A stretch of DNA of 7,368 nucleotides, taken from a virus (taxonomy: Duplodnaviria > Heunggongvirae > Uroviricota > Caudoviricetes). Made by a program: the position numbers and the translations under genes. The stretch lies in the IMG/VR virus record IMGVR_UViG_2537561685_000009. One strand, written 5' to 3'. Positions 1,815-7,368 of the stretch are shown here, piece after piece (the stretch's first letter is position 1; each line of letters opens with the position of its first letter). The notes below the pieces were generated by a model, which was given only the letters and a program-made list of their open reading frames with translations, searched no databases and was not told the origin of the DNA.

Positions 1815-2237
1815 ATGTTCCTGAAAACCGAATCATTTGAACATAACGGTGTGACCGTCACGCTTTCTGAACTGTCAGCCCTGCAGCGTATTGAGCATCT
1901 CGCCCTGATGAAACGGCAGGCAGAACAGGCGGAGTCAGACAGCAACCGGAAGTTTACTGTGGAAGACGCCATCAGAACCGGCGCGTTTCTGGTGGCGATG
2001 TCCCTGTGGCATAACCATCCGCAGAAGACGCAGATGCCGTCCATGAATGAAGCCGTTAAACAGATTGAGCAGGAAGTGCTTACCACCTGGCCCACGGAGG
2101 CAATTTCTCATGCTGAAAACGTGGTGTACCGGCTGTCTGGTATGTATGAGTTTGTGGTGAATAATGCCCCTGAACAGGCAGATGACGCCGGGCCAGCAGA
2201 GCCTGTTTCTGCGGGAAAGTGTTCGACGGTGAGCTGA
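1815..2237 (+). CDS. G: Tail assembly chaperone G
   Basis: Intact 140-aa ORF (MFLKTESFEHNGVTVTLSEL...PVSAGKCSTVS), lambda gpG-like. GGAGAG RBS upstream of ATG 1815. Stop TGA 2235-2237. Confidence 0.9.
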   Translation: MFLKTESFEHNGVTVTLSELSALQRIEHLALMKRQAEQAESDSNRKFTVEDAIRTGAFLVAMSLWHNHPQKTQMPSMNEAVKQIEQEVLTTWPTEAISHAENVVYRLSGMYEFVVNNAPEQADDAGPAEPVSAGKCSTVS

Positions 2238-2653
2238 GTTTTGCCCTGAAACTGGCGCGTGAGATGGGGCGACCCGACTGGCGTGCCATGCTTGCCGGGA
2301 TGTCATCCACGGAGTATGCCGACTGGCACCGCTTTTACAGTACCCATTATTTTCATGATGTTCTGCTGGATATGCACTTTTCCGGGCTGACGTACACCGT
2401 ACTCAGCCTGTTTTTCAGCGATCCGGATATGCATCCGCTGGATTTCAGTCTGCTGAACCGGCGCGAGGCTGACGAAGAGCCTGAAGATGATGTGCTGATG
2501 CAGAAAGCGGCAGGGCTTGCCGGAGGCGTCCGCTTTGGCCCGGACGGGAATGAAGTTATCCCCGCTTCCCCGGATGTGGCGGACATGACGGAGGATGACG
2601 TAATGCTGATGACAGTATCAGAAGGGATCGCAGGAGGAGTCCGGTATGGCTGA
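1815..2653 (+). CDS. G-T: Tail assembly chaperone G-T fusion produced by programmed -1 ribosomal frameshift
   Basis: Slippery heptamer G GGA AAG at 2213-2219 lies near the 3' end of G. The -1 frame continues open from 2219 to TGA 2651-2653 and encodes the gpT-like sequence (FDGELSFALKLAREMGRPDWRAMLAGMSS...GIAGGVRYG). There is no independent strong start for T. This is the well-known lambda G/GT recoding arrangement. Confidence 0.8.
2213..2219 (+). promoter_or_regulatory. Programmed -1 ribosomal frameshift slippery site (GGGAAAG) for G-T synthesis
   Basis: Exact XXXYYYZ heptamer GGGAAAG positioned so that zero-frame codons are GGA AAG, 6 codons before the G stop, with the T frame open in -1. 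Confidence 0.8.
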
Positions 2654-5221
2654 ACCGGTAGGCGATCTGGTCGTTGATTTGAGTCTGGATGCGGCCAGAT
2701 TTGACGAGCAGATGGCCAGAGTCAGGCGTCATTTTTCCGATACGGAAAGTGATGCGAAAAAAACAGCGGCAGTCGTTGAACAGTCAATGAACCGGCAGGC
2801 GCTGGCTGCACAGAAAGCGGGAGTTTCCGTCGGGCAGTATAAAGCCGCCATGCGTATGCTGCCTGCACAGTTCACCGACGTGGCCACGCAGCTTGCAGGC
2901 GGGCAAAGTCCGTGGCTGATCCTGCTGCAACAGGGGGGTCAGGTTAAGGACTCCTTCGGCGGGATGATCCCCATGTTCAGGGGGCTTGCCGGTGCGATCA
3001 CCCTGCCGATGGTGGGGGCCACCTCGCTGGCGGTGGCGACCGGTGCGCTGGCGTATGCCTGGTATCAGGGCAACTCAACCCTGTCCGATTTCAACAAAAC
3101 GCTGGTCCTTTCCGGCAATCAGGCGGGACTGACGGCAGATCGTATGCTGGTCCTGTCCAGAGCCGGGCAGGCGGCAGGGCTGACGTTTAACCAGACCAGC
3201 GAGTCACTCAGCGCACTGGTTAAGGCGGGGGTAAGCGGTGAGGCTCAGATTGCGTCCATCAGCCAGAGTGTGGCGCGTTTCTCCTCTGCATCCGGCGTGG
3301 AGGTGGACAAGGTCGCTGAAGCCTTCGGGAAGCTGACCACGACCCGACGTCGGGCTGACGCGATGGCACGCAGTTCCATAACGTGACGGCGGAGCAGATT
3401 GCGTATGTTGCTCAGTTGCAGCGTTCCGGCGATGAAGCCGGGGCATTGCAGGCGGCGAACGAGGCCGCAACGAAAGGGTTTGATGACCAGACCCGCCGCC
3501 TGAAAGAGAACATGGGCACGCTGGAAACCTGGGCAGACAGGACAGCACGGGCATTCAAATCCATGTGGGATTCGGTGCTGGATATTGGTCGCCCGGACAC
3601 TGCCCAGGGAATGCTGGAGAAAGCAGAAAAGGCTTTTGATGAGGCGGACAAAAAATGGCAGTGGTATCAGAGCCGGAGCCACCGGCGCGGTAAAACCTCA
3701 GCATTTCGTGCCAATCTCCGGGGAGCATGGGAGGACAGAGCGAATGCGCAACTTGGACTTTCAGCCGCCACGTTGCAGGCCGATCTTGAAAAGGCCAGAG
3801 AGATGGCAGCAAAGGACTGGGCCGAGTCTGAGGCATCACGGCTGAAATATACCGAAGAGGCGCAGAAGGCTTACGAACGGCTGCAGACGCCGCTGGAGAA
3901 ATATACCGCCCGTCAGGAAGAACTGAACAAGGCACTGAAAGACGGGAGAATCCTGCAGGCAGATTACAACACGCTGATGGCGGCGGCGAAAAAGGATTAT
4001 GAAGCGACGCTGAAAAAGCCGAAACAGTCCGGCGTGAAAGTGTCTGCGGGCGATCGTCAGGAAGACAGTGCTCATGCTGCCCTGCTGACGCTTCAGGCAG
4101 AACTCCGGACGCTGGAGAAGCATGCCGGAGCGAATGAGAAAATCAGCCAGCAGCGCCGGGATTTGTGGAAGGCTGAAAATCAGTTCGCGGTACTGGAGGA
4201 GGCGGCACAACGTCGCCAGCTATCCGCACAGGAGAAATCCCTGCTGGCGCATAAAGATGAGACGCTGGAGTACAAACGCCAGCTGGCTGCACTTGGCGAC
4301 AAGGTTACGTATCAGGAGCGCCTGAACGCGCTGGCGCAGCAGGCGGATAAATTCGCACAGCAGCAACGGGCAAAACGGGCCGCCATTGATGCGAAAAGCC
4401 GGGGGCTGACTGACCGGCAGGCAGAACGGGAAGCCACGGAACAGCGCCTGAAGGAACAGTATGGCGATAATCCGCTGGCGCTGAATAACGTCATGTCAGA
4501 GCAGAAAAAGACCTGGGCGGCTGAAGACCAGCTTCGCGGGAACTGGATGGCAGGCCTGAAGTCCGGCTGGAGTGAGTGGGAAGAGAGCGCCACGGACAGT
4601 ATGTCGCAGGTTAAAAGTGCAGCCGCGCAGACCTTTGATGGTATTGCGCAGAATATGGCGGCGATGCTGACCGGCAGTGAGCAGAACTGGCGCAGCTTCA
4701 CCCGTTCCGTGCTGTCCATGATGACAGAAATTCTGCTTAAGCAGGCAATGGTGGGGATTGTCGGGAGTATCGGCAGCGCCATTGGCGGTGCTGTTGGTGG
4801 TGGAGCATCCGCGTCAGGCGGTACAGCCATTCAGGCCGCTGCGGCGAAATTCCATTTTGCAACCGGAGGATTTACGGGAACCGGCGGCAAATATGAGCCA
4901 GCGGGGATTGTTCACCGTGGTGAATTTGTCTTCACGAAGGAGGCAACCAGCCGGATTGGCGTCGGCAACCTGTACCGCCTGATGCGCGGCTATGCCACCG
5001 GCGGTTATGTCGGTACACCGGGCAGCATGGCAGACAGCCGGTCGCAGGCGTCCGGGACGTTTGAGCAGAATAACCATGTGGTGATTAACAACGACGGCAC
5101 GAACGGGCAGATAGGTCCGGCTGCTCTGAAGGCGGTGTATGACATGGCCCGCAAGGGTGCCCGTGATGAAATTCAGACACAGATGCGTGATGGTGGCCTG
5201 TTCTCCGGAGGTGGACGATGA
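2646..5221 (+). pseudogene. H: Tail tape measure protein H, frameshifted near 3341-3385 into a 246-aa N-terminal ORF and a 612-aa C-terminal ORF
   Basis: ATG 2646 overlaps the end of G-T (ATGGCTGA). The N-terminal ORF (MAEPVGDLVVDLSLDAARFDEQMARV...EAFGKLTT) runs to TGA 3384-3386. The continuation (SAEQIAYVAQLQRSGDEAGALQAANEAATKGF...) is in a different frame from 3383 and runs to TGA 5219-5221, with a long Ala/Gln/Glu-rich helical middle and a Gly-rich hydrophobic segment typical of tape measure proteins. DPTSG and MAR fragments are visible in alternating frames inside 3341-3373. Confidence 0.8.
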
Positions 5222-5547
5222 AGACCTTCCGCTGGAAAGTGAAACCCGGTATGGATGTGGCTTCGGTCCCTTCTGTAAGAAAGGTGCGCTTTGGTGATGG
5301 CTATTCCCAGCGAGCGCCTGCCGGGCTGAATGCCAACCTGAAAACGTACAGCGTGACGCTTTCTGTCCCCCGTGAGGAGGCCACGGTACTGGAGTCGTTT
5401 CTGGAAGAGCACGGGGGCTGGAAATCCTTTCTGTGGACGCCGCCTTATGAGTGGCGGCAGATAAAGGTGACCTGCGCAAAATGGTCGTCGCGGGTCAGTA
5501 TGCTGCGTGTTGAGTTCAGCGCAGAGTTTGAACAGGTGGTGAACTGA
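5218..5547 (+). CDS. M: Minor tail protein M (tail tip assembly)
   Basis: Intact 109-aa ORF (MKTFRWKVKPGMDVASVPSVRKVRFGDGYSQRAPAGLNANLKTYSVTLSVP...), lambda gpM-like. ATG 5218 overlaps the H stop (ATGA). Stop TGA 5545-5547 overlaps the L start (TGATG). Confidence 0.9.
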   Translation: MKTFRWKVKPGMDVASVPSVRKVRFGDGYSQRAPAGLNANLKTYSVTLSVPREEATVLESFLEEHGGWKSFLWTPPYEWRQIKVTCAKWSSRVSMLRVEFSAEFEQVVN

Positions 5548-6244
5548 TGCAGGATATCCGGCAGGAAACACTGAATGAATGCACCCGTGCGGAGCAGTCG
5601 GCCAGCGTGGTGCTCTGGGAAATCGACCTGACAGAGGTCGGTGGAGAACGTTATTTTTTCTGTAATGAGCAGAACGAAAAAGGTGAGCCGGTCACCTGGC
5701 AGGGGCGACAGTATCAGCCGTATCCCATTCAGGGGAGCGGTTTTGAACTGAATGGCAAAGGCACCAGTACGCGCCCCACGCTGACGGTTTCTAACCTGTA
5801 CGGCATGATCACCGGGATGGCGGAAGATCTGCAGAGTCTGGTCGGCGGAACGGTGGTCCGGCGTAAGGTTTACGCCCGCTTTCTGGATGCGGTGAACTTC
5901 GTCAACGGAAACAGCGAAGCCGATCCGGAGCAGGAGGTGATCAGCCGCTGGCGCATCGAGCAGTGCAGCGAACTGAGCGCGGTCAGTGCCTCTTTTGTAC
6001 TGTCCACGCCGACTGAAACGGATGGCGCTGTTTTTCCGGGACGTATCATGCTGGCCAACACCTGCACCTGGACCTATCGCGGTGATGAGTGCGGTTATAG
6101 CGGTCCGGCGTCGCGGATGAATATGACCAGCCGACGTCCGATATCACGAAGGATAAATGCAGCAAATGCCTGAGCGGCTGTAAGTTTCGCAATAACGTCG
6201 GCAACTTTGGCGGCTTCCTTTCCATTAACAAACTTTCGCAGTAA
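5547..6244 (+). pseudogene. L: Tail tip protein L, frameshifted near 6100 so the written ORF ends early at 6173
   Basis: ORF 5547..6173 (MQDIRQETLNECTRAEQSASVVLWEIDL...TWTYRGDECGYSGPA) matches lambda gpL and then diverges into SRMNMTSRRPISRRINAANA*. The expected C-terminus (DEYDQPTSDITKDKCSKCLSGCKFRNNVGNFGGFLSINKLSQ*) is encoded in the +1 frame from about 6103 to TAA 6242-6244. The span 5547..6244 is 698 nt, one short of a multiple of 3. Confidence 0.8.
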
Positions 6245-6248
6245 TCCC

Positions 6249-6986
6249 ATGACAGAGACAGAATCAGCGATTCTGGCGCACGCCCGGCGATGTGCGCCAG
6301 CGGAGTCGTGCGGCTTCGTGGTGAGAACGCCGGAGGAGGAAAGATATTTTCCCTGCGTGAATATCTCCGGTGAGCCGGAGGCGTATTTCCGGATGTCGCC
6401 GGAGGACTGGCTGCAGGCAGAATGCAGGGTGAGATTGTGGCGCTGGTCCACAGCCACCCCGGTGGTCTGCCCTGGCTGAGTGAGGCTGACCGGCGGCTGC
6501 AGGTGCAGAGTGATTTGCCGTGGTGGCTGGTCTGCCGGGGGCGATTCATAATTCCGCTGTGTGCCGCATCTCACCGGGCGGCGCTTTGAGCACGGGGTGA
6601 CGGACTGTTACACGCTGTTCCGGGAGCTTACATCTGGCGGGATTGAGATGCCGGATTTTCATCGCGGGGATGACTGGTGGCGTCACGGTCAGAATCTCTA
6701 TCTGGATAATCTGGAGGCCACAGGGTTTTACCGTGTCGCACTGACAGAGGCACAACCTGGCGATGTGCTGCTGTGCTGCTTTGGTTCATCGGTGCCGAAT
6801 CATGCCGCCATTTACTGCGGCGACGGTGAGCTGCTGCACCATATTCCTGAACAACTGAGTAAACGAGAGAGGTATACCGACAAATGGCAGCGACGCACAC
6901 ACTCCCTCTGGCGTCACCGGGAATGGCACGCATCTGCCTTTACGGGGATTTGCAACGATTTGGCCGCCGCATCGACCTTCGTGTGA
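6249..6986 (+). pseudogene. K: Tail tip assembly protein K (MPN/JAMM plus NlpC/P60-like), frameshifted at about 6421 and again at about 6540-6556
   Basis: ATG 6249 (MTETESAILAHARRCAPAESCGFVV...FRMSPEDWLQAE) is followed by a frame break. The conserved MQGEIVALVHSHPGGLPWLSEADRRLQVQSDLPWWLVCRG, which contains the JAMM-type HxH-x7-S-x2-D motif, is encoded in another frame from 6422. Frame 0 resumes at 6561 (PHLTGRRFEHGVTDCYTLF...NHAAIYCGDGELLHHIPEQLSKRERYTDKWQRRTHSLWRH...STFV*) to TGA 6984-6986. An alternative shorter start at ATG 6393 (MSPEDW) corresponds to the shorter lambda annotation as I recall it. Confidence 0.7.
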
Positions 6987-7368
6987 AAACGGGGGCCGAA
7001 GCCATCCGGGCGCTGGCCATGCAGATCCCGGCGTTTCGTCAGAAGCTGAGCGACGGCTGGTATCAGGTACGCATTGCCGGGCGTGATGCAGGTAAAACCG
7101 AATTGTCTGCCCGTCTTAATGAGCCGCTGGAAAATGGTGCCGTGATCCATATCGTGCCGCGTCTGGCAGGAGCCAAAAGTGGCGGTGTGTTTCAGGCTGT
7201 GCTGGGGGCGGCTGTTATGGCGGTTGCTATATGGATGCCGGGGGTAGGAATTATGGCGAGTAATCTGCTGTTTTCTCTCGGTGCCAGTATGGTGCTCGGT
7301 GGTGTGGCGCAGATGCTGGCACCGAAAGCCAGAACTCCCCGTACACAGACAACGGATAACGGCAAACA
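6884..7368 (+). CDS. I: Tail tip assembly protein I (5' portion; runs off the window end)
   Basis: Open frame from ATG 6884 (MAATHTLPLASPGMARICLYGDLQRFGRRIDLRVKTGAEAIRALA...GVFQAVLGAA...LFSLGASMVLGGVAQMLAPKARTPRTQTTDNGK) with no stop to the window edge, lambda gpI-like. It overlaps the 3' end of K in a different frame. An alternative start is ATG 6923. The central segment differs from lambda gpI as I recall it. Confidence 0.75.
   Translation, partial: MAATHTLPLASPGMARICLYGDLQRFGRRIDLRVKTGAEAIRALAMQIPAFRQKLSDGWYQVRIAGRDAGKTELSARLNEPLENGAVIHIVPRLAGAKSGGVFQAVLGAAVMAVAIWMPGVGIMASNLLFSLGASMVLGGVAQMLAPKARTPRTQTTDNGK

Follow-up and report, generated by a model that had tools for sequence, protein, structure and literature searches.

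Four one-base gaps split the tape measure gene of a short Escherichia coli prophage contig and very probably derive from collapsed prophage copies

The DNA analysed here, a stretch of 7368 nt referred to below as the window, carries a lambda-like tail module in which the tape measure gene H is split into two open reading frames (ORFs). The break is a property of the deposited sequence, and chance is not at issue. Comparisons with related tail modules indicate that the split is very probably an assembly-consensus artefact, resulting from the collapse of near-identical prophage copies, and not a biological feature. The window is a complete contig of a draft genome:

1–7368, + strand: contig AQCA01000042.1 of draft assembly GCA_000359055.2 (E. 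coli p0305293.5), equal to the whole window (accession, synteny)

The module comprises the end of FII, the genes Z, U, V, G, T, H, M, L and K and the start of I, and many lambdoid phages are 95–97% identical to it. The closest real sequence found for the window is a prophage of the closed ETEC 120899 chromosome (NZ_CP025916.1; locus L182). The two sequences are collinear from end to end, and the window differs from this prophage by 78 mismatches (1.06%) and 25 one-base deletions, with 0 insertions. The deletions form three clusters, located in V, H and L/K, and the 1.8- and 2.7-kb stretches between the clusters are free of indels. We interpret the window as a collapsed-repeat contig. Being an entire short contig, it fits a repeat that the assembler was unable to place.

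Upstream of H, window 2213–2219 contains an intact GGGAAAG, the heptamer of the programmed −1 frameshift in G/GT, and both the G ORF (1815–2237) and the T-frame ORF (2219–2653) are undisturbed. At the 3′ end of the window, the portion in gene I (7088–7368) shows many apparent indels relative to Kati, PhiR34_1 and HK630 but is collinear with the ETEC 120899 prophage. The apparent deletions from 7088 onwards vanish against that prophage. This segment is another natural allele of gene I and not an artefact.

Gene H immediately follows the G/T chaperone pair, which contains the slippery site, and is itself followed by M-L-K-I; the locus is syntenic with HK630 and PhiR34_1. The ORF list bears out the split described in a first-pass annotation of this DNA, with the upstream ORF ending at 3386 and the downstream ORF beginning at 3383 in a different frame. 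Alignment to three intact relatives and to the closed-genome prophage identified four one-base deletions in the gene. The window was also aligned to the profile of a panel of 83 related tail modules, from which the allele counts below were taken.

2646–3386, + strand: ORF of the N-terminal fragment of H, 246 aa, frame 3 (ORF list; PF06791 TMP_2)
3383–5221, + strand: ORF of the C-terminal fragment of H, 612 aa from an incidental GTG, frame 2 (PF09718, lambda tape measure C-terminal domain)
3340–3341, + strand: first missing base of H, third position of a Thr codon (ACA/ACT; panel alleles A 63, T 20)
3351–3355, + strand: second missing base of H, third position of TCG/TCA or of GGA/GGG (alignment; panel)
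3359–3360, + strand: third missing base of H, third position of a Thr codon (ACA/ACG; panel alleles A 15, G 68)
3370–3371, + strand: fourth missing base of H, third position of an Arg codon (CGT/CGC; panel alleles T 3, C 80)

The 246-aa ORF encodes true H up to approximately residue 231 and then runs out of frame to the stop codon TAA at 3384–3386. The TGA found four bases after this TAA belongs to the frame of the downstream ORF. Both fragments are present in GenBank as proteins of E. coli p0305293.5, namely ENH51254.1 (246 aa) and ENH51255.1 (612 aa). Across the break, the expected H peptide has to be assembled from VEVDKVAEAFGKLTT, DPTSG, LT, AMAR and QFHNVTAEQ, read in frames 3, 2, 1, 3 and 2 in turn. 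About four single-base deletions within some 35 nt had been predicted for this region, and an alignment across the break had been proposed as a check; against the intact relatives, four deletions were indeed located, all within about 30 nt. The second missing base follows 3351–3354, and its placement is ambiguous inside a G run, where both candidate sites are polymorphic.

As deposited, H spans 2576 nt and is distributed over two ORFs in place of a single ORF of about 853–859 codons. Restoration of the four bases yields one ORF of 859 aa with zero internal stops. The resulting 2580 nt correspond to 859 codons and a stop codon, and the uninterrupted H genes annotated in Kati, PhiR34_1 and ETEC 120899 have the same length. 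The repaired length of roughly 859 aa given in the first-pass annotation is therefore correct, and the uninterrupted H of about 855–860 aa that was to be sought in related phages and prophages exists, with 859 aa, in all three of these relatives. Two domains are recognised in the repaired protein, PF06791 TMP_2 (E = 8.9e-70; aa 54–256, full profile) and PF09718 Tape_meas_lam_C (E = 1.6e-20). The break, at about aa 232–243, lies inside the TMP_2 domain.

The window H shares its position between G/T and M, as well as its Pfam domains, with the 859-aa variant of lambda gpH (Kati, PP925833; PhiR34_1, PV340559; ETEC 120899, NZ_CP025916.1, WP_000840312.1). After repair, it is also equal in length and aligns without gaps to H of Kati and PhiR34_1, with 841–842 of the 859 residues identical (98%); the H of ETEC 120899 likewise aligns gap-free at 98% identity. 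In the deposited form, it differs from these relatives in that four one-base gaps interrupt the gene.

The 859-aa variant of H is carried by Kati, PhiR34_1 and ETEC prophages and exceeds the classical 853-aa H of lambda/HK630 by six residues. Alignment of the repaired H with the 853-aa type contains six gap columns, and these six, together with 55 of the 64 amino-acid differences, are concentrated in alignment columns 300–420. A mosaic central segment at about aa 300–420 (window ~3545–3905) sets the longer variant apart from the lambda/HK630 type. The six additional residues thus belong to an already known mosaic variant. The length of the tail is proportional to the length of H, at about 0.15 nm per residue (Katsura and Hendrix). 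By this measure, six residues lengthen a tail of about 150 nm by a negligible 1 nm or so. A marginally longer tail had been suggested on the basis of 859 versus 853 aa; the difference in protein length holds, whereas the effect on the tail is insignificant and the variant is not a new one.

Two side observations concern other sequences with H. In the deposited annotation of Kati (L001, PP925833), M, L and K are missing at locus 5407–7158; the features listed there are small ORFs of hypothetical proteins and, on the minus strand, a hypothetical protein of 1.5 kb. This is probably an annotation error. A 5.6-kb contig (L107, IMGVR_UViG_2698536418_000006) contains an identical 47-nt H segment at both 3089–3135 and 4705–4751, 1.6 kb apart. 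The repeat may reflect either a mis-assembly or a duplication inside a tape measure gene.

Gene H is not the only affected gene of the contig. Two further clusters of missing bases are present:

1433–1570, + strand: V cluster, 13 missing bases (12 third positions and one polymorphic first position)
6109–6639, + strand: L/K cluster, 8 missing bases

The deletions in V extend over about 137 nt, just upstream of and at the start of the C-terminal Ig-like (Big_2) part, and split the gene into 1072–1464 and 1575–1799. All of them are located at polymorphic sites. One of the bases missing in the L/K cluster is the second base of the stop codon of L, where a TGA/TAA polymorphism exists. L is truncated (called as 208 aa), and K is called as fragments. 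The lesions in V and L/K appear to be the same artefact as that in H. The first-pass annotation remarked that a split tape measure is normally incompatible with tail assembly. A real split with such consequences is unlikely, since V and L/K are hit in the same manner and all the missing bases lie on allele-variable sites.

The placement of the deletions was evaluated statistically against the panel. Ties between equal-scoring gap placements were resolved toward polymorphic sites, and the null distribution was obtained from 3000 simulated random deletions taken through the identical alignment procedure. All 25 deletions of the window can be placed on panel-polymorphic sites with zero mismatches (25/25; null 0.23, P ~ 1e-16), and 23/25 correspond to codon third positions (null 0.36–0.40, P ~ 1e-8 to 6e-8). 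The other two affect, in V, a first position that is polymorphic and, in L, the second base of the stop codon. Within the clusters, the spacings between deletions are multiples of three in reference coordinates. The missing bases coincide with positions that vary between copies. The lesions are strongly non-random in placement and are accompanied by no insertions, and no stops are left after repair, a combination that does not conform to a pseudogene. The bias toward polymorphic and wobble positions is the signature of a consensus artefact and not of mutation.

The pattern was further examined under a model of merged alleles, in which the contig is represented by the consensus of two alleles minus their discordant columns, and pairs of natural haplotypes were tested for an exact match to the window. 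In the H cluster (151 nt), the window string is exactly reproduced by 1 of 276 haplotype pairs, formed by the A,A,A,T type (PhiR34_1, L050) and the T,G,G,C type (L012). An exact match in the V cluster (176 nt) was likewise obtained with a single pair (1/820), the 13 discordant columns of which are the 13 missing bases. Random-deletion controls were reproduced by a haplotype pair in 0/5000 cases for the H region and in 0/5000 cases for the V region. The T,G,G,C allele of H is rare and has a 100% match in only 11 complete-genome records, in essence those of the closest ETEC relatives of the window. Among the matches listed for the closest closed ETEC genomes, the A,A,A,T allele did not occur, and no genome with both H alleles was found by contig names in IMG/VR.

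A search for the lesion in other sequences returned a single further carrier. The H deletions occur in 0/5426 complete E. coli genomes, the best of which match window 3200–3520 at 321/325 positions, with the four gaps as the only differences. Among 185,579 species-representative genomes, none contains the exact 43-mer that covers all four deletions; in IMG/VR it was found once, in a 24-kb contig of an isolate draft genome (L004, IMGVR_UViG_2531839579_000014). At the corresponding locus (2214–8170), L004 and the window have in common all four deletions of H, 10 of the 13 in V and five private SNPs; L004 lacks three of the window deletions and possesses 28 further deletions of its own. Altogether, L004 contains 42 deletions and 0 insertions, and 42/42 deletions lie on polymorphic sites. 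One-directional loss combined with otherwise high identity is a feature of both contigs. L004 probably comes from a sibling isolate whose genome went through the same assembly pipeline. As the two contigs share some deletions and differ at others, the same process would have acted on different segments. Inheritance can hardly account for such a pattern in two contigs of one prophage lineage, with deletions partly shared, about 30 of them different and all at SNP sites. It is readily understood if two assemblies merged an identical mixture of copies over different segments.

Two other short whole-contig UViGs have similar features. Compared to intact references, L141 (IMGVR_UViG_2537561686_000004) has 62 missing and 5 extra bases, and L147 (IMGVR_UViG_2537561684_000005) has 41 missing and 0 extra bases, with about 2% mismatch in each. 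This suggests that the artefact recurs in viral-contig collections derived from draft genomes. A literature search with the accession of the window contig found no mention of it.

The following origin of the split is proposed. The ETEC p0305293.5 genome represented by the draft would contain two or more lambda-like prophages with near-identical tail modules, and short reads of these copies would have been collapsed into the single 7.4-kb contig. The consensus would then emit no base at columns where the copies are discordant, so that each inter-copy SNP becomes a one-base deletion; one possibility would be a re-alignment that turns mismatch columns into pairs of a gap and a base and then decides for the gap. 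In H, four synonymous third-position differences between the alleles, all within 30 nt, would give rise to four deletions and a net −1 frameshift, and the real gene would be an ordinary intact lambda-type tape measure of 859 aa. We infer both the co-residence of the two alleles in p0305293.5 and the software step that drops the column. No documentation of a Celera Assembler consensus that drops discordant columns was found. Lambda-like H-M-L places are repeated in E. coli, with a median of 2 and a maximum of 9 per genome, and the closest closed ETEC genomes possess 3 places matching the H segment and 4–7 places matching H-M-L.

The P0305293 series consists of ETEC isolates obtained in Bangladesh in 2011 and sequenced at IGS/GSCID (PMC4309559). 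The IGS multi-colony ETEC study employed Illumina HiSeq2000 paired-end sequencing at >200× coverage and the Celera Assembler (PMC4462620). To judge by its strain name, p0305293.5 would be a part of this set. A flow-space (454) consensus in which half-signals are averaged to zero was also considered as the source of the gaps and was dropped because the IGS ETEC project combined Illumina HiSeq with the Celera Assembler. Stripping of ambiguity codes by the scan pipeline was rejected because the GenBank proteins ENH51254.1 and ENH51255.1 already carry the frameshift. Stripping of such codes before deposition is possible and would constitute the same class of artefact.

Collapsed near-identical repeats produce correlated SNP columns in the multi-alignment of reads (Phillippy, Schatz and Pop 2008, PMC2397507). 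The window resembles mis-assemblies of this kind, in which copies are merged and their differences appear in correlated columns: the affected columns are inter-copy SNPs, and the contig is short and stands alone. The resemblance has a limit, as PMC2397507 describes SNP columns in the read alignment, whereas the consensus of the window lacks the column altogether, a step that is proposed here.

The same consensus artefact could also have arisen with alleles contributed by a mixed DNA sample, through a second strain or through contamination with a phage or lysogen variant. The data show that two alleles were merged and not where these alleles resided. In line with such a mixture, closed relatives with both alleles of the exact pair were not among the matches listed. 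However, tail modules are present in multiple copies in most E. coli genomes, so the collapse of paralogous copies needs no extra assumption, and the sibling-like contig L004 displays the same merging. A mixed sample is considered unlikely on these grounds.

Cryptic lambdoid prophages with broken tail genes are common. The deletions of the window might accordingly be real, with V, H, L and K as pseudogenes of a defective, decaying prophage. They are present in the GenBank record and in the annotated proteins ENH51254.1 and ENH51255.1, and the recurrence of the four H deletions in L004, which is another assembly, is readable as inheritance. Nevertheless, mutational deletions have no reason to favour polymorphic or wobble sites, yet such sites account for 25/25 and 23/25 of the losses. 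The 25 deletions are accompanied by 0 insertions and no nonsense codons, and the repaired H is 98% identical to that of Kati and PhiR34_1. The complete absence of the lesion from the 5426 complete E. coli genomes also argues against decay, as does the difference of about 30 deletions between L004 and the window despite their common private SNPs. Independent high-quality genomes with the same lesion, which would characterise a pseudogene, were not found; the sole other carrier, L004, is draft-derived and bears the artefact signature. Real decay is thus very unlikely.

Homopolymer under-calls relative to the lambda sequence were the initial reading of the gaps. Contraction of a homopolymer from at least one natural allele could indeed account for 16/25 deletions, including three of the four in H (GGGG>GGG, GG>G and CC>C). 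It is impossible for the other 9/25, among which is the first H deletion. Moreover, only 2 of 92 homopolymer runs of at least 4 nt are touched, so that 90/92 are intact, and 0 runs of A, T or C of at least 5 nt are affected. On the basis of these counts, the initial reading was rejected. Ordinary random sequencing errors of any kind unrelated to repeat collapse are extremely improbable as well, given that the deletions are clustered (spacing of 3–18 nt within the V and H clusters) and track polymorphic sites, and that random indels do not survive into the consensus of Illumina data at >200× coverage.

Physically real deletions that arose at heteroduplex mismatches are very improbable. The scheme would involve recombination between two co-resident, slightly diverged prophages and aberrant repair that removes one base per mismatch, and it would leave clusters of one-base deletions at polymorphic sites, most of them wobble positions. 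Both heteroduplex repair and the consensus artefact predict deletions at inter-copy SNPs, so sequence alone cannot separate the two. No repair process of this type is known.

The programmed −1 frameshift in lambda G/GT is likewise a frame change within the same tail module, and a real one. It operates at one conserved slippery site and gives a defined ratio of two products, in contrast to the lesion in H, which consists of four scattered missing bases and has no slippery motif. A genuine two-gene arrangement or programmed recoding in H can be dismissed with near certainty: the 4-nt overlap of the ORFs (3383–3386) is superficially like translational coupling, but the H peptide needs four separate frame changes, the break falls within the single Pfam domain TMP_2, all intact relatives have one H ORF, and the true programmed frameshift of the module (GGGAAAG, G/T) lies elsewhere, at 2213.

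With the collapse of prophage copies as the preferred reading, the split of H carries no biological weight, and the underlying gene would be an ordinary, known 859-aa tape measure of the lambda type. The artefact is recognisable from the sequence by itself, through the presence of deletions only, their clustering, their multiple-of-three spacing and their location on copy-variable sites. Short prophage contigs of short-read draft genomes, and the viral-contig collections derived from them, can carry clusters of deletions that mimic pseudogenes. The proteins ENH51254.1 and ENH51255.1, together with the broken V, L and K of this contig, should not be scored as prophage decay.
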